Virus record (IMG/VR): IMGVR_UViG_3300044640_001869
Location: 62,001-126,000 of that record
DNA from: an uncultured virus (IMG/VR IMGVR_UViG_3300044640_001869)
Lineage: Duplodnaviria > Heunggongvirae > Uroviricota > Caudoviricetes
Reading direction: 5' to 3' (one strand)
Length of the DNA: 64,000 nt
Each line of letters opens with the position of its first letter. Positions within the stretch are counted from its first letter, which is position 1. Below, piece by piece: positions 11,921 to 53,537 of the stretch. The notes under the pieces were generated by a model that worked only from the letters and a program-made list of their open reading frames with translations, was not told the DNA's origin and ran no database searches. Made by a program: the position numbers and the translations under genes.

Positions 11921-12082
11921 ATGGCGAAAGAAGTAAAAATAGAACATAAGAAGTGGGAAAAAGTCCACGAGTTTGAAGATTATATCACTATTTGGAAATA
12001 TGATAGTAAAAGAAGTATGGTTAACCCATATGAAGTTGAGGTTAAATATAAAACGGTAAAAAAGGTGGTTAAGAAAGATTAA
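11921..12082 (+). CDS. Small hypothetical protein (53 aa, not in ORF track)
   Basis: MAKEVKIEHKKWEK...; TATATTTG promoter box at 11895-11902. Confidence 0.6.
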   Translation: MAKEVKIEHKKWEKVHEFEDYITIWKYDSKRSMVNPYEVEVKYKTVKKVVKKD

Positions 12083-12756
12083 TCTTTATCTTTAGTTGCG
12101 TATTTTACACCCATTATTGTCCCAACGATACTAAATGCGTTAGTTAATAGGATTCCGAACATATTACTCCAAGCTGGTCCGATTGTGTTAACTTCTTTAC
12201 CCATCACAATTGAGAATACATACATTGCGGTTGTAATAACTGCAACAAACATAATAACACCTAAGGCTACTTTAACAATATTACCCATTAATTCTGTTTG
12301 GGTTTTTTTCTGTAACAAATCTAAATCAGAAAGTGCGTTTGCTTTAGCGTGCTCCGCCTCTTCTCTTGCAGATTCAGTTCGTTTCATTTCTTCTTGGAGT
12401 TCTAATTGAATTCTCTCATTTTCATCTTTCCAAGATAATAGTTCGGTATTTTGAGATTCAATTTGTTTCTTAGATGTTTCGACATTTTCTAAGGTTATTT
12501 GTAATTCTTCTAATATTCGGGTATTCTCGGTATTTAAATTTTCAAGTTCGGTATTTTTGTTTTGAATTTGTTTAGTTATATCTAAACGTTTTTTTCTTGA
12601 TTCTTTATCTTTATCAATACAGGATTTAATGTATTGAGAAAACTCAGAATCTTCTTCAGAATCAACTACTTTCAATAAATTACCTTCAAGGCCAATATTC
12701 TTGGCCTTGTAAAGGTCTAATAATTGTTTTTTAGTATTTGCACTAAACTTTATCAT
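12079..12756 (-). CDS. Coiled-coil protein with two C-terminal TM helices
   Basis: Heptad-rich centre, two hydrophobic helices; ATGA overlap with receiver gene. Confidence 0.75.
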   Translation of the reverse strand: MIKFSANTKKQLLDLYKAKNIGLEGNLLKVVDSEEDSEFSQYIKSCIDKDKESRKKRLDITKQIQNKNTELENLNTENTRILEELQITLENVETSKKQIESQNTELLSWKDENERIQLELQEEMKRTESAREEAEHAKANALSDLDLLQKKTQTELMGNIVKVALGVIMFVAVITTAMYVFSIVMGKEVNTIGPAWSNMFGILLTNAFSIVGTIMGVKYATKDKD

Positions 12757-13190
12757 TTGTAAACTTTAAATGTTTGTGTTCTATTTTTAAAATTTGGGTA
12801 ATCTGTTCTGAACTCTTCTAATCTTGGTTCAATTTCATCTGATTTAACTAACCAAAACTGTGCTCCGGCTTGTACCGCTTTCGCTTGTTCTGATGGTTCA
12901 TTTGATGATGAAATAATTCCAATAACAACGTGGTTACCGTATTCAAAATTTATCTTTCTAACTAATTCAATCCCATCAAATGCTGAACCAATTAAATTTA
13001 AATCCACAAATACACATTCAGGTTTTTCTTTATGGTCACCTGAATCAAACCATTGTTTAAACATCCTTGCGGCTTCATCAGAACTGTTCACAGATTTTAG
13101 TGATAAACTAATATCTAATAATGAACATGCGTCCTCAAATACTAAGTGGAATAAATCCTCGTCATCAACTAATAAGATTGATTCTATCAT
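12753..13190 (-). CDS. Single-domain response regulator (receiver)
   Basis: LLVDDED, VFVDLNL, SSS, LVKS. Confidence 0.85.
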   Translation of the reverse strand: MIESILLVDDEDLFHLVFEDACSLLDISLSLKSVNSSDEAARMFKQWFDSGDHKEKPECVFVDLNLIGSAFDGIELVRKINFEYGNHVVIGIISSSNEPSEQAKAVQAGAQFWLVKSDEIEPRLEEFRTDYPNFKNRTQTFKVYK

Positions 13191-14157
13191 TACCTAACTT
13201 TTTTAAAAATTCTTTTATTTCGTTTAATTTATTAACGTTCTTTAAAACTTGAGTGTTTACTCTACTAATCAAATAATTTGTCGTTTCAATTCTTGAATCT
13301 GACATATCACTTTTACTTTCATCATCTATTGTTACCTGAACACGTAGATAATTGTCTAAGAACTCGTTACACTCATAATCAACAACTTTTGAGGTTGCTT
13401 GTGACATAACATCGGTGATTGGTTTAACCCAATCTTTTAACCCCCAGCTCTTAGTTTCTTTAACTCCTAAGTTTTCTGTATAAATACCTGTACCTAAAGA
13501 AAATAATGAGATATCCTCAACATTAATTTCACCAAACCCATAAGTATTTCTTACGACATCCGATATACCTACCAATGAGGGGTTATTTACAAACACACCA
13601 CCATCTATACAAGTTCTTAACTTACCACCATAATTCATTTCATATGAAGGTAAATAAGTTGGTGCCGCTGATGTTGCTCTACAAACATCTTTCAGTAAAC
13701 AATCATAACCTACTTCATTTGATTTACGACTTTTAAACATTACAACTTCATTATTTCTAATATCATATGATGTTACAATAATTGGTTTTAATGTGTTACT
13801 CAATTTTAATGTTTGAAAGTAATTTGACAACTCATTGTCTAATCCTTCAGGACAAAATTTAGGATTGAATACCGAATTGATTTTATTGAAGATATTATTT
13901 TTATATGGGAAAATCACATTACCTTTTGTGGTGTATAATTCAATCAATTTGTCAATTGACAATACCGGAGTTTTACCGTCTTTACTTGCGGTTAATCCAC
14001 AAGCGATTATACCACCTGTTGACGTTCCAACTATTAAATCAAATAACTCGTAAATTTTCTTTCCGGTTATTTTCTCAACTTCTTTTAATATCAATAGGGG
14101 GATTAGACCTCTAAGTCCTCCACCATCTATTGATAGTATTTTAAATTTTTTACTCAT
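13165..14157 (-). CDS. Patatin-like phospholipase
   Basis: ILSIDGGGLRG, GTSTG, ATSAAPTY, DGG. Confidence 0.92.
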   Translation of the reverse strand: MSKKFKILSIDGGGLRGLIPLLILKEVEKITGKKIYELFDLIVGTSTGGIIACGLTASKDGKTPVLSIDKLIELYTTKGNVIFPYKNNIFNKINSVFNPKFCPEGLDNELSNYFQTLKLSNTLKPIIVTSYDIRNNEVVMFKSRKSNEVGYDCLLKDVCRATSAAPTYLPSYEMNYGGKLRTCIDGGVFVNNPSLVGISDVVRNTYGFGEINVEDISLFSLGTGIYTENLGVKETKSWGLKDWVKPITDVMSQATSKVVDYECNEFLDNYLRVQVTIDDESKSDMSDSRIETTNYLISRVNTQVLKNVNKLNEIKEFLKKLGNDRINLIS

Positions 14158-15923
14158 TTTATTTTAATTGTTAATTTAGTTCCCACTTCATTTTTTTCAC
14201 ATTTAATAGTGAAACCGTGTTCGTGTAGGATTGCGATACAAATATTTAAACCTAAACCTGTACCTGATTCTTTTTGACCGTCTTTTCTATTATATGGTAA
14301 TGACAAGTGTTCAAATTCTTCTTGTGTCATACCTCTACCATTATCTTGTATTGCAATATTTTCTTCATTTTCCATAAAGATAGCAACCATTTTAGCGTCA
14401 GAATCGTTATACTTTAAACCATTACGGATTAGATTATCAATCGCGGTACAGAATAATGATTCGTTAATTTCTATTGTTGGTAACCAATCTATCGCCACTT
14501 GACTTGAATAAGCTGTTGAGGATAGGTAAGCGTTTAAGACATCTTTAAGATTATGAGTTTCCTTAGTTAAAACAACATCAGTCTTAACCAAATTGGTAAA
14601 TTCATAAACTCCCTTGTAAACTTTTTGAGTATGTTTCAAACCTTCCTTCAACATTTTAAGTGGGGCCTCCAATTTTAATGTTTCAATATCTTCAGGTTTT
14701 AATCTTCGTTCTAATGAACTAATACCTCTTGGGATGTATGTATTAATCCCTGAGTGCATATCGTGTCTTAGAATCTTCGCGGCGTGTTCTAGATACGTGT
14801 TCTTTTTATTAATTTCCGCAATGTTTTTATGGATTTCAGTTACGTCTTGTCTAATTGAGGTATAACCTTTTAGTTTACCATTATCAACATCAAATTCGGC
14901 TTTAATATATGTATCAACCCAATATAATTCACCATCTTTATTTTTATTGATAACCAAGTCATTCCAAATTTTACCTGACTTCACAGTTTTATACATATTA
15001 GACCAATATTTCTTATCGTGAATGTTAGAATTAACAATTCTATGGTCTTTACCCAAACATTCTTCCAATGACCATCCTGATACCTCTTCGAATTTTTTGT
15101 TCACATATGTAATTTTACCTCTTTTATCTGCTTTACTAACCAATACTGATGAATCAACAAAATGTTCGAACTCAGATAATTCATTTTTAAGTTCATTACC
15201 TTCTTCCACAGAATATGCGAATGAATACAATGATGATAACATTTCAGCGAAATTTACTTCCACTTTATGCCATTCTCTAACGGTATAACTTTCAATACAA
15301 ATAACACCAATAACTTCTCCCTTATAAATAATTGGAACGTCTAACATTGCTCTAATACCAAGGGGTCCTGAATACGTTTCTTTAAAACAACTTGTTGCAG
15401 GATGTAAGTCAACATCATTCGCAATAATGATTGGGTTAGTTTTTAACCCTTCGAAATACGGTTTAAAATCCTTCTCAAATATTTCAACACCTTGAAACCA
15501 TTCATCGTCTTTTTTCTCGTATAATTGTTCACAAACAATCCCGTTATTTTTTTTGTTATATAACCAAATAGAACATCTGTCGGCACATATACTATTAGTA
15601 ACTTCTTTAGTTAATAATTTAGCACCTTCATTAACATTTCCCTCATAGAATAAATGGTTGTGTGTCTGAGATATTAAAGTTTCATTTAAATTTCTAGCAT
15701 AAAAGTTTAATTTAACCGATTCTTTATTTTTTTTCACATAATCATAAATTATTTTGAAAAAAAGAGGGATAAATAAAACAAAACAGATAAATTCAGCCCA
15801 CATCACTGAATTACATAGGGGTAGAAAATTAAACACCACTAAAAGTTTTATTATCAAAAACATTGTCATCACAACTACTGAGGTGTAAAAACAGTATCGT
15901 GTGTTTTTTTCTAGTGATATCAT
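14154..15923 (-). CDS. Membrane GAF-PAS sensor histidine kinase
   Basis: 2 TM, GAF (GIRAMLDVPI), PAS (ITYVNKKFEEVSG), H-box RHDMHS, N-box NLIRNGLKY, DNGRG, GTGLGL. Confidence 0.92.
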   Translation of the reverse strand: MISLEKNTRYCFYTSVVVMTMFLIIKLLVVFNFLPLCNSVMWAEFICFVLFIPLFFKIIYDYVKKNKESVKLNFYARNLNETLISQTHNHLFYEGNVNEGAKLLTKEVTNSICADRCSIWLYNKKNNGIVCEQLYEKKDDEWFQGVEIFEKDFKPYFEGLKTNPIIIANDVDLHPATSCFKETYSGPLGIRAMLDVPIIYKGEVIGVICIESYTVREWHKVEVNFAEMLSSLYSFAYSVEEGNELKNELSEFEHFVDSSVLVSKADKRGKITYVNKKFEEVSGWSLEECLGKDHRIVNSNIHDKKYWSNMYKTVKSGKIWNDLVINKNKDGELYWVDTYIKAEFDVDNGKLKGYTSIRQDVTEIHKNIAEINKKNTYLEHAAKILRHDMHSGINTYIPRGISSLERRLKPEDIETLKLEAPLKMLKEGLKHTQKVYKGVYEFTNLVKTDVVLTKETHNLKDVLNAYLSSTAYSSQVAIDWLPTIEINESLFCTAIDNLIRNGLKYNDSDAKMVAIFMENEENIAIQDNGRGMTQEEFEHLSLPYNRKDGQKESGTGLGLNICIAILHEHGFTIKCEKNEVGTKLTIKIK

Positions 15924-28039: not shown

Positions 28040-28462
28040 TTATAGAATATTTGAATTTTGTCTTGTTGTGTAAAGTATAGGTGTAACATTAGTTATATTA
28101 TAGGATTCTTCCAACCATTGAGTAATAGCCTGACCACACTGACCTGGGTAGTTAAGTTCAAAAGTATCTTCTAAAAACCAAACTAAATTAGCATAACTTA
28201 CAAATATCCTTTTGTATTCTAAACTTTCATCTAATACCATATAATTATCACCTTCTTGATATCTAAATAAGGTTAAATTCTCATCTTTTTCTGATTGAAC
28301 CACATCCAAATCATCAAATAGATGTAAGAAATCCATTGGGGTTTCTATATTGAAAACTTTACGAAAGTTCTCACCACTATTACCAAGTAGTTTAAATACT
28401 TTAACAGTTCCATTTTTTTTAAGAACTTTCTCTAATTTATTTTCTGTTATTAATACTTTCAT
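28040..28462 (-). CDS. PMDFLHLFDDL-family paralog 1
   Basis: MKVLITENKL leader; shared core with 28486, 28894, 42659, 43083. Confidence 0.8.
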   Translation of the reverse strand: MKVLITENKLEKVLKKNGTVKVFKLLGNSGENFRKVFNIETPMDFLHLFDDLDVVQSEKDENLTLFRYQEGDNYMVLDESLEYKRIFVSYANLVWFLEDTFELNYPGQCGQAITQWLEESYNITNVTPILYTTRQNSNIL

Positions 28463-28471
28463 AATTTCATT

Positions 28472-28546
28472 TTAAATTGTTGACCTCACCTAACTGTGAA
28501 GAGGTTGAAAATTGTAACCCCCCTTAAATTGTAAACCTCATCCAAC
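28472..28546 (+). repeat. Partial repeat + 16-bp insert + 36-bp repeat at gene 3' end
   Basis: TTAAATTGTTGACCTCACCTAAC (28472-94); ATTGTAACCCCCCTTAAATTGTAAACCTCATCCAAC (28511-46). Confidence 0.75.
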
Positions 28547-28884
28547 CACACCTTTATAAGTGATTGAATATCATTAAAGTTAAGGTGGAATCCCCACCCT
28601 CCCAAAAACGACCATATTTCATCACCATTGATGTAAACAACCTTTTTTTTTCTATCGTAAACCATATAATTATAACCTTTTTTGTTACGAAATAATGTTT
28701 GATTTTTATATTCTTCAGATTGAACTTGTTCTAAGTCATCAAATAGATGTAAGAAGTCCATCGGACTTTCAATATTAAATAGTTCACAAAAATTATCCCA
28801 ACCGCCTAACATATGAACAGTTTTTTTACTTCCTAATTGTTTAAGAACTTTCTCTAATTTATTTTCTGTTATTATTATTTTCAT
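28486..28884 (-). CDS. PMDFLHLFDDL-family paralog 2
   Basis: MKIIITENKL; ends WLDEVYNLRGVT + variable tail. Confidence 0.8.
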   Translation of the reverse strand: MKIIITENKLEKVLKQLGSKKTVHMLGGWDNFCELFNIESPMDFLHLFDDLEQVQSEEYKNQTLFRNKKGYNYMVYDRKKKVVYINGDEIWSFLGGWGFHLNFNDIQSLIKVWLDEVYNLRGVTIFNLFTVR

Positions 28885-28893
28885 ACTCTTATT

Positions 28894-28981
28894 TTAAATT
28901 GTAGACCTCATCCAACTCGACACATTGGAGAAAAAAGACCAATCAGTTGTGACCCCCCTTAAATTGTAGACCTCATCCAAC
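28894..28981 (+). repeat. Partial repeat + 29-bp spacer + 36-bp GTTG...CAAC repeat
   Basis: TTAAATTGTAGACCTCATCCAAC exact at 28894-916 and 28959-981; full unit GTTGTGACCCCCCTTAAATTGTAGACCTCATCCAAC 28946-981. Confidence 0.85.
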
Positions 28982-29316
28982 CAATCCTGTGTAATTCTTT
29001 GAGTCTCATAATAACTAAGACCAAATTTATCATCCAAAAATGACCATATTTCATAATAATTGATATGAACTACCTCATTTTTTCTATCGTAAACCATTAA
29101 GTTTTCACCTTTTTTATAACGAAATAACGTCCAATTTTCTTTTTTTTCAGATTTAACTTGTTCCAAATCATCAAACAGATGTAAGAAGTCCATTAATGTT
29201 TCAATATTTAATACTTCGCAAAAGTTTTCCCAACCACCTAATAGTTTAATAGTTTTCCCAACTCCGGTTTGTTTAAGGACGTTTTTTACTTTATTTTCTG
29301 TTATTAATATTTTCAT
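28894..29316 (-). CDS. PMDFLHLFDDL-family paralog 3
   Basis: MKILITENKV; ends WLDEVYNLRGVTT + variable tail. Confidence 0.8.
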   Translation of the reverse strand: MKILITENKVKNVLKQTGVGKTIKLLGGWENFCEVLNIETLMDFLHLFDDLEQVKSEKKENWTLFRYKKGENLMVYDRKNEVVHINYYEIWSFLDDKFGLSYYETQRITQDWLDEVYNLRGVTTDWSFFSNVSSWMRSTI

Positions 29317-32599: not shown

Positions 32600-33217
32600 T
32601 TATTCAAAGAATGAATCAACATATTCAATTTCAATATCAATGTCACCACTCATTTTATTAACATAGTTTTTCATCATATAATCATAAACAAGACCAATAG
32701 CACTTTCACGATAATCTTCAACAGTCTCATTCCATTCATCATCATCATCGTCACCAATTGCACTTAATACCTCACCAACATTCTCTTTATCAATAATTGC
32801 GTTATTAAGATTAAAATTTAAATAATAAAGTATAAGTATTTCATCATCAAGTCTTAATTCATTAATTTCAAATTCCAAATAATTGTCATTATCTTTATAT
32901 GTGAACTTAATCGGTTTTGTACTATCATAATACTCTGAATAAGTCCCTATATGATGTTTCATTCCAAATTCATCTAATATTGATAGATTTGTTATACCGT
33001 GTTTTTTATTCCAATCGGTAACCCATAATCTAACTAACTTATCCGGTGTAATATAGTAACCTGTTTTATTTAACCCAGGGTCATCATCAATATATTTTTT
33101 AACGTTAAATACTTTAGCCATTCTGAAGTCGTAACTAGCATACCCCTGTTTATCCCACTTATTATAGAAAATCTTTTTTAAATCTTCTAATTTACTTTCA
33201 CTTATTATAACTTTCAT
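32600..33217 (-). CDS. KWDK/YWDK-family protein, MKVIISE leader
   Basis: Paralog of 33220 and 34564 genes. Confidence 0.75.
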   Translation of the reverse strand: MKVIISESKLEDLKKIFYNKWDKQGYASYDFRMAKVFNVKKYIDDDPGLNKTGYYITPDKLVRLWVTDWNKKHGITNLSILDEFGMKHHIGTYSEYYDSTKPIKFTYKDNDNYLEFEINELRLDDEILILYYLNFNLNNAIIDKENVGEVLSAIGDDDDDEWNETVEDYRESAIGLVYDYMMKNYVNKMSGDIDIEIEYVDSFFE

Positions 33218-38093: not shown

Positions 38094-39227
38094 TTATTTT
38101 GGATATACTAAACTTTCTTTATTAATTGTCACAACATTATTACCATCTGAAATTACATATCCGTAGTTTTCAAAAATATAAAAATCCTGTTTATTAGCAA
38201 AAATTAAATACTGTACTTTTTTACTATAATTTTTCATCTTATAAGTTGAGATGATAAATGATGATTCATCGGTTTTTATACCACTTAATGGTTTAACTTG
38301 GAATGTTGATTCAACACCATTTTTAATGGTAATAAAATCCACCCCTTGTTTTCTATCTCTACCTGTACCCGCACAAAATTGTTGAATCTTGTCAGGTGAA
38401 ACATTTAATTTATTTATTAAATGGTTTATGGCATAATTTTCGGTTTCAGTCCCTTTATTATAAGATTCAAAATTTAAATTAACCAACACCTTTAATTTAA
38501 TACCATCAAACAAATCATTTTGATTTTCAACTATCCACGATTTAAAATTATCAAGTGACACTTGTTGTGGGTCAGTATCATAATACCAATTCAATAATTG
38601 TTTAATTACTTTTGGATTGGTATCAAAGAAATTTAAAATCGACCAAACTTGACCGTTAACATTTGTATTATACAATGGGTCAATAGGGTTGTTAACATCA
38701 ACAATTAATCCGATATTACTTTCACACATTGCTGATGTAACAATATATTTATTCGATTTTTTATTCAGAATAATGTAATTATTAAGACCCAAATTATCCT
38801 TAAACTTTTCAAATAATAATTTTGTTATAAATTCAGGAAATCCTGAATTTAATTTTTTCAAATCATCAGGATATAAGTTTGTAACGACTTGTTTTTTAAT
38901 ATATTCAGGATAATCAGACTTTAAAATATATAAGTTATTATTCTTGCTAATATATAACTTATCACTTTCAATTTCTAAAGTATTTAATGGGTTGATAACC
39001 GATTTAAATGATATTTTAGTCGGAAGTTTACTCTGTTTAATGGAACTCAACATATCTTTATCAGATGTTGATACACCATTAATATAAATTGCACCTGTTG
39101 GCCATTCACCGTGCCTAATATCAGTAAACTCAGCAAATGGTTTAATTTCATCTTCAGGTTTATCATCAGATAAACTTAATTCTTGCTCTATTAAATCAAA
39201 TTGTCTTTCTGTTATAATAATTTTCAT
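38094..39227 (-). CDS. Leader-bearing protein with putative PD-(D/E)xK nuclease C-terminus
   Basis: MKIIITERQ; KGTETE...DRKQGVDF...FQVKP. Confidence 0.5.
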   Translation of the reverse strand: MKIIITERQFDLIEQELSLSDDKPEDEIKPFAEFTDIRHGEWPTGAIYINGVSTSDKDMLSSIKQSKLPTKISFKSVINPLNTLEIESDKLYISKNNNLYILKSDYPEYIKKQVVTNLYPDDLKKLNSGFPEFITKLLFEKFKDNLGLNNYIILNKKSNKYIVTSAMCESNIGLIVDVNNPIDPLYNTNVNGQVWSILNFFDTNPKVIKQLLNWYYDTDPQQVSLDNFKSWIVENQNDLFDGIKLKVLVNLNFESYNKGTETENYAINHLINKLNVSPDKIQQFCAGTGRDRKQGVDFITIKNGVESTFQVKPLSGIKTDESSFIISTYKMKNYSKKVQYLIFANKQDFYIFENYGYVISDGNNVVTINKESLVYPK

Positions 39228-42188: not shown

Positions 42189-42461
42189 TTATCTATTATT
42201 ATCGTAATACTGTTTTAGTCTATCACCAAATATTTCCATTATTTCGTTATGAACATCTTCATTAAAATACATCTCATTCTTATTACAAGAACGTCTTACG
42301 AAGGCTGTTAAAATATATTTGTAAGTATCCCATTCAAAGTCACCAGGGGGAACAAGTAATTTTTCTTCACCACTAGTTAATTTATCAACGAACTCTTTCA
42401 TACATTCATATCTTCGTCTCATATAACGACTATATTGTTCTTCTGTAATTATTATTTTCAT
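42189..42461 (-). CDS. Hypothetical protein, MKIIITEEQY leader
   Basis: Leader motif. Confidence 0.75.
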   Translation of the reverse strand: MKIIITEEQYSRYMRRRYECMKEFVDKLTSGEEKLLVPPGDFEWDTYKYILTAFVRRSCNKNEMYFNEDVHNEIMEIFGDRLKQYYDNNR

Positions 42462-42658: not shown

Positions 42659-42737
42659 TTAAATTATAGACTTCATACTACCCGACAAGAGTTTTGGTGT
42701 TGGTCGTGTATATTTTAAATTGTAGACCTCACCCAAC
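42659..42737 (+). repeat. Degenerate duplicated repeat at gene 3' end
   Basis: TTAAATTATAGACTTCATACTAC (42659-81) vs TTAAATTGTAGACCTCACCCAAC (42715-37). Confidence 0.6.
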
Positions 42738-43081
42738 CACTTCTTTAATACTTCCTGAGTAACAGTATAGGTAGTATCAAATTGTCGAATCGTTTTTAAC
42801 AAAATCATCAAAATCTCAACATTATTAATGTAGACTTCCTCATTTTTTCTATCGTAAACTATATAATTATCACCTTTTTTATAACGAAATAACGTCCAAT
42901 TTTTTTTTTCTTCCGACTGAACTCGTTCCAAATCATCAAAAAGGTGTAAGAAGTCCATTGGACTTTCAATCTTAAATACTTTGCAAAAATTATCCCAACC
43001 ACCTAGTAGTTCAATAGTTTTTTTAGTCCCTGATTGTTTAAGAACTTTTTCTAATTTATTTTCTGTTATAACTATTTTCAT
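42659..43081 (-). CDS. PMDFLHLFDDL-family paralog 4
   Basis: MKIVITENKL; ends WLGEVYNLK + variable tail. Confidence 0.8.
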   Translation of the reverse strand: MKIVITENKLEKVLKQSGTKKTIELLGGWDNFCKVFKIESPMDFLHLFDDLERVQSEEKKNWTLFRYKKGDNYIVYDRKNEEVYINNVEILMILLKTIRQFDTTYTVTQEVLKKWLGEVYNLKYTRPTPKLLSGSMKSII

Positions 43082-43082
43082 A

Positions 43083-43505
43083 TTATTCTATTCGGCTAAC
43101 ATTATCCCACAAATTAAATGAGTGGATTCTATTTATACCAATATCAAGTTTATAAACATCCTCCAACCACGTTTGTATTATTTCTCTCGGTTTAAAGTCA
43201 GGTGTAAACAAATTACTACTGGTAACAAAAGTCAAAATCTCTTCATTACTAATACCAATACGATTCTCATTTATGTTATATATCATAAAGTTTTTTCCCG
43301 GTCTATATCTATATAATTTAAAGTTGGAGTTTTCAGTTGATTGAAATTCTTCTAAATCATCAAATAGATGTAAGAAATCCATCGGACTCTCAATCTTAAA
43401 TACTTTACAAAAGTTCTCCCAACCACCTAGTAACTGAATTGTTTTATCAGTACCTGATTGTTTAAGAACTTTTTCTAATCTATTTTCTGTAATTACTATT
43501 TTCAT
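43083..43505 (-). CDS. PMDFLHLFDDL-family paralog 5
   Basis: MKIVITENRL; WLEDVYKL. Confidence 0.8.
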   Translation of the reverse strand: MKIVITENRLEKVLKQSGTDKTIQLLGGWENFCKVFKIESPMDFLHLFDDLEEFQSTENSNFKLYRYRPGKNFMIYNINENRIGISNEEILTFVTSSNLFTPDFKPREIIQTWLEDVYKLDIGINRIHSFNLWDNVSRIE

Positions 43506-46345: not shown

Positions 46346-46942
46346 AAAATTTTTCCAGAAATTTTTTTTCACTATTAACCCCTTTTTAGATATGTCGATT
46401 TTTTTAGGAAATTTAAACATATAACAAAAAACCCCTCCGTTGAAGGAAGGGTTTAATATCAATCAATTTCTTTAATTGATTTCTTATCTAACACATTGTC
46501 TATGTGGAGACTTAACCTTTGAGAAATTGGGGTTAGGTCTTCAATGTCTTCCTCATTATCACCAACAATATCAAATGCCGATTCAATAAATGATTTTAAA
46601 TATACACTCCACTCATCTTTTTCTTCTTGTGATAAATTAGATGGAACTTCGTGAGTCAATTTAAGTATTGCAACTTGAAGTTGTAGTTTAGCTCTTTCAA
46701 GACGAGTTTGTACTTTAGGTTTCTCACCACTAAAAAAAGAACCACCCCCAAGTAAATAATCGTCGTTATTAAATTTAATTATATCATAATCATCAGACTC
46801 ATTAATAACCCTCTTTACTATTCGAATCAAATCAGACTCAGTTAATCTTATTATTTTTTTCATATATAATTTTTTATTATAAATACACCCCCGTTTAAAT
46901 AGGAGGTCCCTTTTCCCCCAAAATTTTTCCAGAAATTTTTTT
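46346..46942 (+). repeat. 23-bp exact direct repeat pair
   Basis: AAAATTTTTCCAGAAATTTTTTT at 46346-68 and 46920-42. Confidence 0.75.
46459..46863 (-). CDS. Hypothetical protein, MKKIIRLTESDL leader
   Basis: TATTTAT 46879-85. Confidence 0.75.
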   Translation of the reverse strand: MKKIIRLTESDLIRIVKRVINESDDYDIIKFNNDDYLLGGGSFFSGEKPKVQTRLERAKLQLQVAILKLTHEVPSNLSQEEKDEWSVYLKSFIESAFDIVGDNEEDIEDLTPISQRLSLHIDNVLDKKSIKEID

Positions 46943-48780: not shown

Positions 48781-49347
48781 TTATACTAAGAACTTCTTAG
48801 GGTCATACCAAAAACAACCTACACAAGTTCCTTCATAATTTATATTACCTTGTACAACTGAAACTGAACAACCTCTTTCTTTTGCATCATATCTAATGTT
48901 AGTCTTAGAACATTTTAGACAGTCAGACCTTTTTTGTTTATTAAGACTTTCTAATAGTGGTTGGAAATCATCTATAGTTTGTTTATCTAAATTAAGTACA
49001 TCATCAGGATATCTCCCATCTTTATGGTCTACTTCTATTTTGTGTCCGTTGTTTAGTTTAAGATTAGTAATAACACAGGGTTTGTTTCTAACTTCATCCC
49101 ATATATCTTTTCTGATTCTTCTTGTTCCGTTGTTATCTTTATACCCATTGAATCTCCATTGGGTTTCGTTATCTACAATACGTTTTTCGAATATATATTT
49201 TTTAAGACCGACGTTTCTATACCAATGGTTTCCATTCTTTGGGAATAGTGTAATATATTTCCCCACGCATTCGGATTTGTTCACCCATCTTGATACACCA
49301 TTTTGGTCGGGATTAAACAGTTCTATAACTAATTCGGTATTATTCAT
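48781..49347 (-). CDS. IceA1/NlaIII-like HNH restriction endonuclease
   Basis: PDQNGVSRWV..SE.VGKY, IEVDHKDGR, DDFQPL...NKQKR..C..C, CVGCFWYDP. Confidence 0.75.
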   Translation of the reverse strand: MNNTELVIELFNPDQNGVSRWVNKSECVGKYITLFPKNGNHWYRNVGLKKYIFEKRIVDNETQWRFNGYKDNNGTRRIRKDIWDEVRNKPCVITNLKLNNGHKIEVDHKDGRYPDDVLNLDKQTIDDFQPLLESLNKQKRSDCLKCSKTNIRYDAKERGCSVSVVQGNINYEGTCVGCFWYDPKKFLV

Positions 49348-50119
49348 ATTTGTTTATTCTATCAATTGAGTATTCCACTTGTTCTTTACTAATTTCACTA
49401 CCTATATAGTTTCTGTTATTCATCTTACAGGATAAACCTGTTGTCCCCGTTCCCATAAATGGGTCATATATAATATCTTGTTCTTTTGTATATATGTTTA
49501 TTAGTTTGGTACAGAGTTCTGATGAGTATGTTGCTTTATTAAGGTTAGTTGATTCGTCATTATTTTTTGCGGTGATAAAGTTATCAATTACTTCATAGTA
49601 GTTCTGACCTTTCGGGGATGTTTTGGTAATTTGTTTATTACAGTTAAACGTTTTCACCTCATCTTTCCTGACGATAACAAAAATAAACTCTACGATTCTG
49701 TTTAATCTATTGTATGATGCTGGGTGAGGAATACTATTACTTTTCTTCCATACGATAGTATCTACCACCGTGAACGGAGTATTGTTAATGATATGTGCTA
49801 TCATTGTGTATGGTAGTGCGGGATTTTCTATTGAGTATGAGAAGTTATATAGTATAGTTCCGTTATTGATTAGGACCTTATCTATATTATTGAATATCAT
49901 TGAAGTCCACGTCAGGTATTCTTCTTCGGTTTTCCAATCAACGTATGTATCGTATCTATTTTGTTTATCTGCATATCCCCCTTTTCTTTTGGTCATATTG
50001 TATGGTGGCGACGTTATCACGCAATGAATGGATTTTGGTTCCATTCTATTCATTGTTATTATGCAGTCCTCGTTATATATTGTATTAATCATATCAGTAA
50101 TATAGTAATTATTTTCCAT
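49340..50119 (-). CDS. Beta-class N4-C/N6-A DNA methyltransferase
   Basis: TSPPY near N-terminus, DPFMGTGTT near C-terminus, IGSEI. Confidence 0.92.
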   Translation of the reverse strand: MENNYYITDMINTIYNEDCIITMNRMEPKSIHCVITSPPYNMTKRKGGYADKQNRYDTYVDWKTEEEYLTWTSMIFNNIDKVLINNGTILYNFSYSIENPALPYTMIAHIINNTPFTVVDTIVWKKSNSIPHPASYNRLNRIVEFIFVIVRKDEVKTFNCNKQITKTSPKGQNYYEVIDNFITAKNNDESTNLNKATYSSELCTKLINIYTKEQDIIYDPFMGTGTTGLSCKMNNRNYIGSEISKEQVEYSIDRINKYE

Positions 50120-51256: not shown

Positions 51257-51739
51257 CTACCATATACTCAGGACCTCTACGTAATGGTTGTAGATTATCA
51301 TATCATCTAACAGTCCTGAGTGTTTCCATTTTCTGTTAATATCATCCATATCAGAATAAGAGATTGGTTTTTTCTCTGATAGTTCGGGGATGTGTTTATA
51401 GAACCATTTAGTAAATATTGATTCTATTTTGGTATTATCAAATTGCATAACCCCTTTATAGAAATAGTTCCATATATAATCATCAACCGTTACAATATCT
51501 TGGTTATCTTCATAAATAAGGAATATATTCTTTTTTAAGTAATAGGTCCACGCTTTTTTAACATAACCACTAACATCCATTGGAACTAGGTTATCAATTA
51601 AGTAATCAAGATAAGATTCAGGATTATCAATATATGCTTGTCTGATAATATCTTTATTATTCCCGAATAAATTTATGGCTTTAGGTAGACCGTGAGTGTT
51701 AACGGTTTCTCTTACTTTATCTATTTGTTGTTGGTTCAT
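51257..51739 (-). CDS. Hypothetical protein, distant relative of PMDFLHLF family
   Basis: GLPKAINLFG, IYE...VDDYIW, IFTKWF. Confidence 0.65.
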   Translation of the reverse strand: MNQQQIDKVRETVNTHGLPKAINLFGNNKDIIRQAYIDNPESYLDYLIDNLVPMDVSGYVKKAWTYYLKKNIFLIYEDNQDIVTVDDYIWNYFYKGVMQFDNTKIESIFTKWFYKHIPELSEKKPISYSDMDDINRKWKHSGLLDDMIIYNHYVEVLSIW

Positions 51740-52214: not shown

Positions 52215-53292
52215 TTAATTTAATGTTTCTTCCACCTCATCTTCGCAGTCATCTAATAGGGACCACGTTGAGTCTACCTTACAATTTAGGGTATCTTCTA
52301 CCCTCAAGAAGCGTGTGTTTCTTCCACAAAAAGTTGAATCTACCTTACAATTTAGGGTATCTTCTACCCTTAAAGGAAGCGATGATTGAATATATGATGT
52401 TGAGAGTACCTTACAATTTAGGGTCTCTTCCACCTGTGTTCTATGTTTTCCGTTAAACCAATTTACCTCATCAACCTTACAATTGAGGACCTCTTCCACC
52501 AAAATTTCATCGTTTTGAAAAACCCCAAGTGTTGAATCTACCTTAAAATTTAGTGTATCTTCTACCACACCACGATTTTCATTTTCATCAAAATAAATTG
52601 AATCAACCTTACAATTTAGGGTCTCTTCCACAAGTAATTCATTCCCATCTTTGTACCATTGGGCTCTGTTTACTTTACAATTTAGGGTATCTTCCACATC
52701 CCTCGGAATAAATTTATTAATACTTACTGTTTTTACTACATTAAAATTTAGGGTCTCTTCCACCTCATCTTCGGTTAATTCTCTACCCGCCCATGTTGAG
52801 ACTACCTTACAATTTAGGGTATCTTCCACCCCCTGGGCAGAATCTCCGTAACCCATTCCCGTTGTGTCTACCTTACAATTTAGGGTATCTTCCACATCCC
52901 TCGGAATAAATTTATTAATACTTACTGTTTTTACTACATTAAAATTTAGGGTGTCTTCTACCCCAGAACGCTCCAAATCGAGAAGATACTGCGTTGAGAG
53001 TACCTTACAATTTAGGGTGTCTTGCACCCAGGGGTTAATTGTTCCAACCACTCCTTGAGTTGAGTCTACCTTACAATTTAGGGTGTCATCCACCGGAATT
53101 GGTAAATATGAATCTCTGGAAACTGTTGAGTCTACCTTACAATTTAGGGTCTCTTCCACCTCAAAACGAGGGGCATTCCCATATCTAAAAGTTGAGTCTA
53201 CCTTACAATTTAGGGTGTCTTGCACCGCGGTATTTTCATCTAAGTTGTGTAATTCAGTTCTACCTACCTTAGCATTTAGTTTATTTTCCACC
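52215..53292 (+). CRISPR. CRISPR-like array (36-bp repeat / 30-bp spacer) embedded in an ORF; no cas genes in window
   Basis: 16 repeats starting at 52267 every 66 bp to 53257, plus partial 52215-36; consensus GTTGAGTCTACCTTACAATTTAGGGTNTCTTCCACC; 16 spacers of 30 bp; repeats degenerate. Confidence 0.55.
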
Positions 53293-53537
53293 CATTCAGA
53301 GATTAATTCCTGAAACACCTCACTAGTCATTGCTAGCAAACTTGTAATCTTTTTGAAGTAATCATATCTCCACCACAGGTAATTGGTTTCAATTTTATAT
53401 TCAAGGAACCAATATTTTCTTTCTCGGTTAACAAACCAAATCCCTTTTGTGTTTGGGTTATATATAATCTCACATTGATTGAGTTCTTTCTCAATACGTT
53501 TATAAAACCCCTCTTTATATTTTTCGGTATAATTCAT
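52215..53537 (-). CDS. Protein with N-terminal domain and 16-17 22-aa repeats (VEDTLNCKVDST + variable 10 aa)
   Basis: 440-aa uninterrupted ORF, ATGA-coupled to upstream gene. Confidence 0.8.
   Translation of the reverse strand: MNYTEKYKEGFYKRIEKELNQCEIIYNPNTKGIWFVNRERKYWFLEYKIETNYLWWRYDYFKKITSLLAMTSEVFQELISEWVENKLNAKVGRTELHNLDENTAVQDTLNCKVDSTFRYGNAPRFEVEETLNCKVDSTVSRDSYLPIPVDDTLNCKVDSTQGVVGTINPWVQDTLNCKVLSTQYLLDLERSGVEDTLNFNVVKTVSINKFIPRDVEDTLNCKVDTTGMGYGDSAQGVEDTLNCKVVSTWAGRELTEDEVEETLNFNVVKTVSINKFIPRDVEDTLNCKVNRAQWYKDGNELLVEETLNCKVDSIYFDENENRGVVEDTLNFKVDSTLGVFQNDEILVEEVLNCKVDEVNWFNGKHRTQVEETLNCKVLSTSYIQSSLPLRVEDTLNCKVDSTFCGRNTRFLRVEDTLNCKVDSTWSLLDDCEDEVEETLN

Follow-up and report, generated by a model that had tools for sequence, protein, structure and literature searches.

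Diversity-generating retroelements of phages alter the C-terminal segment of a protein in a programmed way and act on paralogous targets, and the gene family described here resembles them in both respects. In Flavobacterium columnare, according to the accessible part of the published account, a 36-bp VI-B array owes its spacers, of 28-32 bp and many of them from the host, to the Cas1-Cas2 of a II-C system acting in trans (PMC8092290); the arrays reported here share with it the 36-bp repeat, the spacer size, the lack of a cis cas1 and the tolerance of host-derived spacers, and their repeat is 23-24/36 identical to VI-B repeats. Huge phages carry Cas-less CRISPR arrays that are likewise short and without cas1 or cas2, with some spacers matching bacteria of the same habitat, and the available portions of two accounts assume that host Cas is used (PMC7162821; PMC12607003). 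Repeat-like phage units relying on host Cas are also known as viral crRNA-like RNAs and RNA anti-CRISPRs (10.1101/2024.10.29.618823; PMC10651486; both available in part), and spaced peptide repeats resulting from an array are known from spurious ORFs over CRISPR arrays (PMC7673337, available in part).

In the phages studied here, fragments of host chromosomal DNA are found between copies of a 36-bp repeat that is itself the coding 3' end of a gene. Our literature search, in which subscription journals were thinly covered, returned no paper on translated in-frame arrays, Cas1-driven protein diversification or coding-sequence mini-arrays, and the capture of inserts behind a gene-end repeat looks like an undescribed way of diversifying proteins.

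Repeat-insert units at gene ends

The window, i.e. the whole stretch of 64,000 nucleotides analysed, comprises bases 62001-126000 of a linear 126-kb virus record with a completeness rating of 42%. In the first 62 kb of the record, before the window, genes resembling those for portal, protease and capsid were recognised by eye, and a bS21 gene without a counterpart in a complete 296-kb relative (G001) was found there on the opposite strand, between the portal and prohead protease genes (G000:19358-19510). The same layout is reported for bS21-encoding freshwater huge phages, in which bS21 lies amid the portal, protease and capsid genes and is encoded on the other strand; their predicted hosts are Bacteroidetes (PMC9723584, accessible part). 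The sequencing runs containing this stretch are lake metagenomes. Elsewhere in the window we observed a run of sensor kinase-like, response-regulator-like and patatin-like genes (12079-15923, named by eye) and an N6/N4 DNA methylase gene adjoining an IceA-type nuclease gene (48781-50119), likely a restriction-modification pair.

The earlier note on this DNA, made from its letters alone, had placed repeat-insert-repeat units at the ends of three paralogous genes (starting at 28894, 28486 and 42659), and all three were found in place (Table 1). Base by base, the 28894 gene was verified to end in a perfect GTTG...CAAC 36-mer, a 29-bp insert and an exact 23-bp partial copy. Also borne out were the reading of the repeat on the coding strand as G, 11 codons and AC after an invariant Trp codon, in a phase identical to that of the repeat in the 52-kb gene; the likeness of the 28-kb and 52-kb DNA repeats (21/36 identical); and, in an alignment of five window paralogs, similarity up to the repeat and not beyond it. 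An exact 23-mer duplicate at 50-80-bp spacing has a chance expectation of about 1e-6 in the window, and the repeat pattern with up to 3 mismatches gave 0 matches in 100 shuffles. The 16-bp insert is probably an eroded older one. Contigs from the lake runs carried the window's insert unchanged in two runs, with one run lacking cover there. One lake run (X20) contained, at window 28950-28984, a contig with two repeat copies around a different 31-base insert, and also a variant of the 28894 gene stopping at the repeat.

Table 1. Features of the window that belong to the two array-bearing gene families.
Feature	Position	Strand	Observation
140-aa family gene	28894..29316	-	ends within second (partial) repeat; ORF, homologs, AlphaFold pLDDT 86
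36-bp repeat, codons LDEVYNLRGVT(T)	28946..28981	-	GTTG/CAAC ends; last-helix end and last-strand start
29-bp insert, predicted translation DWSFFSNVS	28917..28945	-	antisense fragment of a 691-aa Flavobacteriales chromosomal gene, 28/29
Exact 23-bp partial repeat	28894..28916	-	copy of the repeat's last 23 bases; gives WMRSTI and stop codon
132-aa paralog	28486..28884	-	ORF and paralog alignment
Repeat copy	28511..28546	-	33/36 identity to the 28946 repeat
16-bp insert	28495..28510	-	sequence unit between repeat and partial copy
Partial repeat	28472..28494	-	19/23
Paralog, protein motif present, no clear duplicate	28040..28462	-	best copy 15/23
Paralog with decayed unit	42659..43081	-	repeat 42702-42737 (24/36), 20-bp insert 42682-42701, partial copy 42659-42681 (18/23)
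Array-less paralog	43083..43505	-	homolog comparison
Distant member of same domain family, array-less	51257..51739		E 8e-6; adjoins 52-kb gene
440-aa gene (52-kb gene)	52215..53537	-	~95-aa domain, then 16 repeats and a partial one, 16 in-frame 30-bp inserts (15 distinct)
Insert FCGRNTRFL	52303..52332	-	30/30, antisense strand of host dihydroorotase (pyrC); sole exact match in GTDB collection
Insert VSRDSYLPI	53095..53124	-	29/30, antisense strand of host aminopeptidase-N-like gene
Insert QYLLDLERS	52963..52992	-	27/30 and 26/30, antisense strand of host M14 peptidase gene, two genomes
Insert ELHNLDENT (first)	53227..53256	-	27/30, host FAD-binding-domain gene, sense, own frame of source

Pattern searches returned 43 loci in viral contigs with a 27-base pattern and 11 in metagenome contigs with a 31-base pattern. 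When 1.37 Mb of these phages were scanned with a detector anchored on the Trp codon, 48 distinct insert sets emerged; leaving out three leucine-rich protein repeats and two 52-kb-type sets, we retained 43 distinct gene-end arrays of the 140-aa family with 1-5 inserts each, mostly of 27-35 bp. The protein family has at least 1593 members, and the complete relative encodes nine array-bearing and seven array-less homologs. Insert lengths clustered, with 63 of 69 at 29-32 bp and a peak at 31 bp (25/69). Among the best 120 of 1593 homologs, near-identical orthologs of the 28894 gene ended in at least 8 different tails, the kind of variation among orthologs that the proposal of repeated insertion had called for. 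Most of the lengths in this family break the frame, and the downstream repeats are non-coding yet identical. The arrays consist, as CRISPR arrays do, of fixed-length direct repeats with unique spacers of similar size.

Related arrays of the 140-aa family had their distal inserts in common and differed in the gene-proximal ones in three array pairs (inserts number 2-5 in common in L005/L009; the last in L014/L016 and in G001/L042), and this gene-distal position of the shared inserts is as for polarised acquisition. Polarity in the 52-kb family is not strict because both end inserts are common to strains, the best host match adjoins the distal end, and some inserts recur at different positions. 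The layout first described for the 52-kb array held, with its content corrected to 16 inserts (15 distinct) among degenerate repeats. We found 30 proteins of this family among those of 57-182 aa, with 1-4 in-frame units in that range; unit counts rose to 8 in two loci and 16 in the window gene, and the insert length was 30 bp in 27 of 27. Kinship between the 52-kb gene, whose array the earlier note read as the expanded form of a family-wide C-terminal diversification system, and the 140-aa family is moderate by profile (52% probability, E 1.4e-4 for the domain) and good by predicted structure, in which both show one order of four strands and two helices and the last helix terminates within the repeat. 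The repeat-peptide chain was modelled at pLDDT <30.

Copies of the domain were also observed in other settings. At G001:240193-241716 (L060:193-1716, minus strand) a family domain with a repeat-insert end follows an Fe/Mn superoxide dismutase in one fusion protein, and at G001:30782-31879 another copy stands at the end of a 365-aa protein. A phage-group contig with a two-insert array (L045, G039:C129) was binned in a Flavobacterium MAG, which has a Cas1 at a contig end with no array in view.

Host chromosomal origin of the inserts

Host matches with 0-3 mismatches were observed for 11 of about 48 distinct inserts searched, including 5 of the 16 from the window, where different arrays were compared with different genome sets, all incomplete. 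Each match spans the insert end to end and the sources are ordinary chromosomal genes. Seven matches were antisense and four sense, with one in the frame of its source; since seven are antisense, their peptides are new. The search for protospacers that had been proposed returned host genes and no phage, and the inserts derive from many unrelated genes rather than from a single ancestral event with later drift. Spacers captured from other DNA, a further mark of CRISPR arrays, are therefore present.

Four inserts of the 52-kb gene had matches in one genus at 27-30/30. An lpdA piece in L017 matched 11 GTDB genomes at 28-29/30, titled mostly Crocinitomicaceae or Flavobacteriales, and among 151 genomes of that family one (G873) matched three inserts of the 52-kb gene at 30/30, 29/30 and 26/30. 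The M14 peptidase insert matched at 26/30 in G873 and 27/30 in G896, both antisense, and the pyrC 30-mer occurred once in a 596-Gb collection. Compared with 16 genomes of the genus of G873, the 29-bp insert (28917-28945) matched G896 at 28/29 (E 2.8e-8, antisense); the source gene there adjoins valS-like and thiolase-like genes, and its G873 ortholog matched at 22/29. Further sources included mnmG (in six genomes), a chemoreceptor gene and a methyltransferase gene for three inserts of L047 (27-28/30), purC for an insert of L009 (29/31), and ribosomal protein L16, named by eye, for an insert of L068 (26/29 in three genomes). Ordinary chromosomal genes surround each match in G873, which, though titled actinobacterium, is probably a freshwater Flavobacteriales genome of the Crocinitomicaceae, to judge from its 33% GC and the Flavobacteriales family from which it was drawn. 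Titles at odds with the family drawn from or with the gene sequences were seen in two cases (L257/G873, actinobacterium; L162, Chryseobacterium).

As a control, shuffled inserts were compared with 364 kb of G873, a part of one genome; the best of 320 had 5 mismatches, and the real inserts had 0, 1 and 4. The main matches have per-genome E values between 1e-8 and 1e-4 and are found again in orthologous genes. No clear match emerged when L068 was compared with 301 genomes of the genus of G039, the insert at 28.9 kb with the 151 family genomes (its match came from the genus genomes), L046 with G873 and five genomes of the genus (best 26/30), or L042 with five genomes. No source was found for the 16- and 20-bp inserts in 1.1 Mb of host loci.

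Phage DNA as the source was rejected for lack of full-length matches in the phage sets searched. No insert matched at full length in G000 or G001, or in 1.33 Mb of masked related phage DNA, where partial matches of 20/20 and 23/24 were seen and one equally good shuffle match arose in ten rounds; the annotated phage collection contained no insert match, and one insert compared with viral contigs found only itself. Beside the protospacers, ACT occurred at -4..-2 on the gene-facing side for 4 of 7 52-kb-type inserts (p ~0.017 after the offset scan) and was absent for 140-aa-type inserts, so that no PAM is common to all matches. An A at +2 on the other side was present in 9 of 11 matches, which come from relatives and not from the exact host.

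Reading frame and predicted protein tail

Detection imposed no open frame across the insert, and the stop counts cover inserts of 25-36 bp, with near-identical ones counted once. The first stop never occurred before codon 6, in 39 of 39 first and 30 of 30 later inserts, where shuffles predicted stops in codons 1-4 for 10.5 and 7.6 of them, respectively (p 3e-4 each). Because the later, silent inserts passed the same stop filter, they would once have been first. None of 27 inserts of the 52-kb family contained a stop (13.5 expected). Frame-shifting lengths, for which the next repeat gives the stop, were open in 44 of 49 cases versus 11 of 20 for in-frame lengths (p 0.002). Early stops may be absent because the last strand of the predicted structure (residues 123-127) spans the junction of repeat and insert, and the constant 23-bp trailer is explained in part because its TAA ends the gene after 29- or 32-bp inserts. 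These counts show selection acting on the predicted translation of the inserts.

The repeat codons are rare in the phage and fixed in ~95% of the 43 genes, with a GC3 of 0.53 versus 0.18 upstream. GC3 of the motif was 0.50 in 19 array-bearing and 0.25 in 17 array-less homologs, the latter writing it in AT-rich codons. Close kinship and gene conversion could contribute to this fixation. Selection on the frame means that the tail matters; it does not mean that changing the tail helps. The C-terminal diversification system put forward in the earlier note is supported, in that host DNA is captured and the inserts are filtered by frame; the resulting change may be adaptive or just tolerated.

The 140-aa family was assigned to no Pfam, NCBIfam or PHROG family; it had no relative in the phage collection, its atlas matches were below 0.9, and the fold search gave no clear solved fold (best Z 4.0), only uncharacterised viral models. 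Its N-terminus, MKIxITE, fits the L/I-X-E cut site of gp21, the T4 prohead protease. T4 internal proteins with L/I-X-E propeptides are packed and ejected, and one blocks a restriction enzyme (PMC9026906, available in part). Similar starts were counted in 22/188 window and 27/336 ORFs, and the MKIxITE start is absent from the 52-kb protein. By analogy, the N-terminal I-x-E motif suggests that the family may be head-packed proteins with a variable tail. Starts of the MKIIITE or MKKVIRLTE type were also present on unrelated window proteins (for example 32600-33217, 38094-39227, 42189-42461, 46459-46863) and are possibly head-targeting propeptides.

Candidate writing enzyme and competing explanations

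No Cas1 was found in 39 phage records, one of them rated complete, custom Cas1/Cas2 profiles found none in nine of those records, and no cas gene was found in the complete 296-kb relative. Among its scanned ORFs (142 of 336 in Pfam, 56 in PHROGs) no Cas, reverse transcriptase or integrase family was observed; the PHROGs scan did identify a phage exonuclease and a UvsX-like recombinase. Cas1 was present in 45 of 151 genomes of the host family and in 1 of 11 tested in the host genus, there with an internal stop. In that host-genus II-C locus (L291, G859:C47:16486-18662) the cas1 internal stop is a TAA and two repeats have the same 22-bp insertion. Host-family II-C repeats are mostly 47 bp (46-50), with a few of 36 bp, and have only the terminal GTTG/CAAC in common with the phage repeat. 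Their spacers are 30 bp in 486 of 579 cases, with 29 far commoner than 31, and the best match of the 579 to the phages was 26/30, below acceptance.

A relaxed repeat pattern occurred in 14 Bacteroidota genomes; in most of them a 36/30 array adjoins a gene of the size of Cas13b, and Cas13b was confirmed in 5 of 6 tested. The phage repeat matches these VI-B repeats at 23-24/36 in exact register (p 0.0006-0.002 in end-keeping shuffles), with a pattern that was relaxed with such a repeat in mind. The comparison with Bacteroidota CRISPR repeats that had been suggested gave a likeness to VI-B repeats in length and identity and none beyond the ends to host-family II-C repeats. The 52-kb repeat retains a VI-B-like hairpin, formed by the strand that faces the coding strand of the gene; the hairpin is lost in the 28-kb repeat, which folds at -0.7 to -5 kcal/mol versus ~-12 for VI-B repeats. 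Cas13b was found in 0 of 5 incomplete host-genus MAGs, where the control was silent too, and a generic array pattern in the host genus scored equal to its control. In three bacterial VI-B arrays (L078, L082, L086) the end repeat consists of its last 23-26 bases only, like the partial trailer of the phage. The Cas1-type target-site duplication first proposed is supported by the 36-bp duplication and the size clustering and not by the enzyme searches or the host-family repeats; the geometry points to Cas1-Cas2 as the integrase.

We favour, at a probability of roughly 0.6, the writing of host fragments at gene ends by a Cas1-Cas2-type enzyme acting in trans, with translation and selection of the fragments as protein tails. 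The 3' end of each family gene would be the target of such a spacer-writing integrase. During infection the enzyme would take a double-stranded fragment of ~30 bp from the host chromosome, possibly supplied by host DNA breakdown, and the fragment would enter at the gene-proximal repeat with duplication of 36 bp, the gene body standing in place of a leader. The newest insert would then be read as the tail, and selection would discard inserts with early stops, the last beta-strand continuing from repeat into insert. Older inserts would be pushed downstream as a silent reserve, which recombination between repeats could restore or delete. Inserts of the 52-kb family would survive only if they were stop-free 30-mers, giving a chain of repeat-peptide units. 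The tails may form a variable interaction surface on head-packed proteins delivered to the host. At even odds, phages would have turned spacer acquisition into a protein-diversifying machine, with random 10-residue peptides, mostly antisense and hence new, drawn from the chromosome of the dying host and displayed on head-packed proteins against changing host defences, and with a silent archive of past winners, written perhaps by an unrecognised integrase.

A rather unlikely alternative keeps the capture and translation and assigns the writing to another integrase, encoded by phage or host and too divergent for present profiles to recognise. The rare Cas1 in the host genus, the 47-bp host repeats, the wider length spread and the many 250-400-aa unknown ORFs in the complete genome would suit it, but the VI-B-like repeats agree in exact register (23-24/36, in a pattern partly chosen with that repeat in mind), and MAGs often lose CRISPR loci. 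To our knowledge, moreover, a 36-bp duplication around a 30-bp insert is made only by Cas1-Cas2. It is unlikely that the arrays work as RNA, i.e. as phage-borne guides that direct host Cas proteins against host genes or sequester them, with the tail a tolerated by-product: the 28-kb repeat folds weakly, the 52-kb repeats vary mostly at third codon positions, the sources are without strand bias (7:4), the targets are scattered housekeeping genes, the MAGs gave no Cas13b (with a silent control), and even silent inserts bear the mark of translation. All identified sources are nevertheless host genes, as expected if phage-matching guides were purged, the 52-kb repeat keeps its hairpin, and Cas-less huge-phage arrays with host-matching spacers are on record (PMC7162821, available portion).

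The arrays might also be accidents, in which a protein motif happens to be repeat-like, host Cas1-Cas2 misfires and purifying selection cleans up, or decoys for the host adaptation complex. We regard this as improbable. Synonymous change would be an easy escape, yet the rare codons persist in 43 genes; two distant sub-families with different repeats keep the same phase, and in-frame units have risen to 16 in the 52-kb gene; a decoy would be expected to catch phage DNA too, and no insert matched the 1.33 Mb of related phage DNA at full length. In its favour, tail composition has no strong positional pattern beyond the absence of early stops, array-less homologs are many, and some units, those with inserts of 16 and 20 bp, are decaying. 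If the units were a common type of protein repeat of 22 residues, or if recombination alone reshuffled the peptides, the open frame and codon-like variation of the 52-kb gene and the reuse of some inserts at other positions would be accounted for. The chance of this is close to nil: the inserts have matches in host genes, most of them antisense or out of frame, and the frame-breaking lengths and identical non-coding repeats of the 140-aa family do not fit it. Host matches refute both as the source of the inserts, with recombination staying as a second process. Two further candidates were rejected, namely a tandem protein repeat (LRR/FNIP-like) whose variable part comes from the unit itself, since the variable parts are antisense host DNA, and a diversity-generating retroelement, since the inserts are mutually unrelated, derive from host genes and show no template copying; no reverse transcriptase was observed among the 142 of 336 G001 ORFs scanned.

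Should the reading of capture and translation hold, CRISPR-style capture of DNA would here, in nature, write protein and not guide RNA, and the system would have its place beside diversity-generating retroelements and cassette systems. It would let one see how non-coding (antisense) DNA becomes selected peptide, and would offer in the inserts a record of the hosts infected by a phage lineage (the inserts here naming a host genus), a test bed for a Cas1-Cas2 or new integrase recognising a site that must also code, and possibly a tool for building peptide libraries in vivo.

Diversity-generating retroelements differ from the present system, which has no template repeat or adenine-specific mutagenesis and replaces whole segments by captured foreign DNA. 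Compared with the VI-B arrays of F. columnare as described in the accessible part of PMC8092290, the phage has no Cas13b, the 28-kb repeat has no hairpin, the length mode is 31 versus 30, and the product is a protein. The huge-phage Cas-less arrays, for which the available portions of the accounts (PMC7162821; PMC12607003) describe no translation, differ in that the repeat here is a conserved protein motif, the gene serves as leader, the inserts are selected as peptide, and the arrays stand on up to nine paralogs per genome. Viral crRNA-like RNAs and RNA anti-CRISPRs act, according to those parts of the sources that were available, as RNA with fixed guides, whereas the inserts here turn over and would be translated. 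Unlike the spurious ORFs over CRISPR arrays, the genes described here have a folded, conserved N-terminal domain, more than 1500 homologs and selection on the frame, as expected of real genes.
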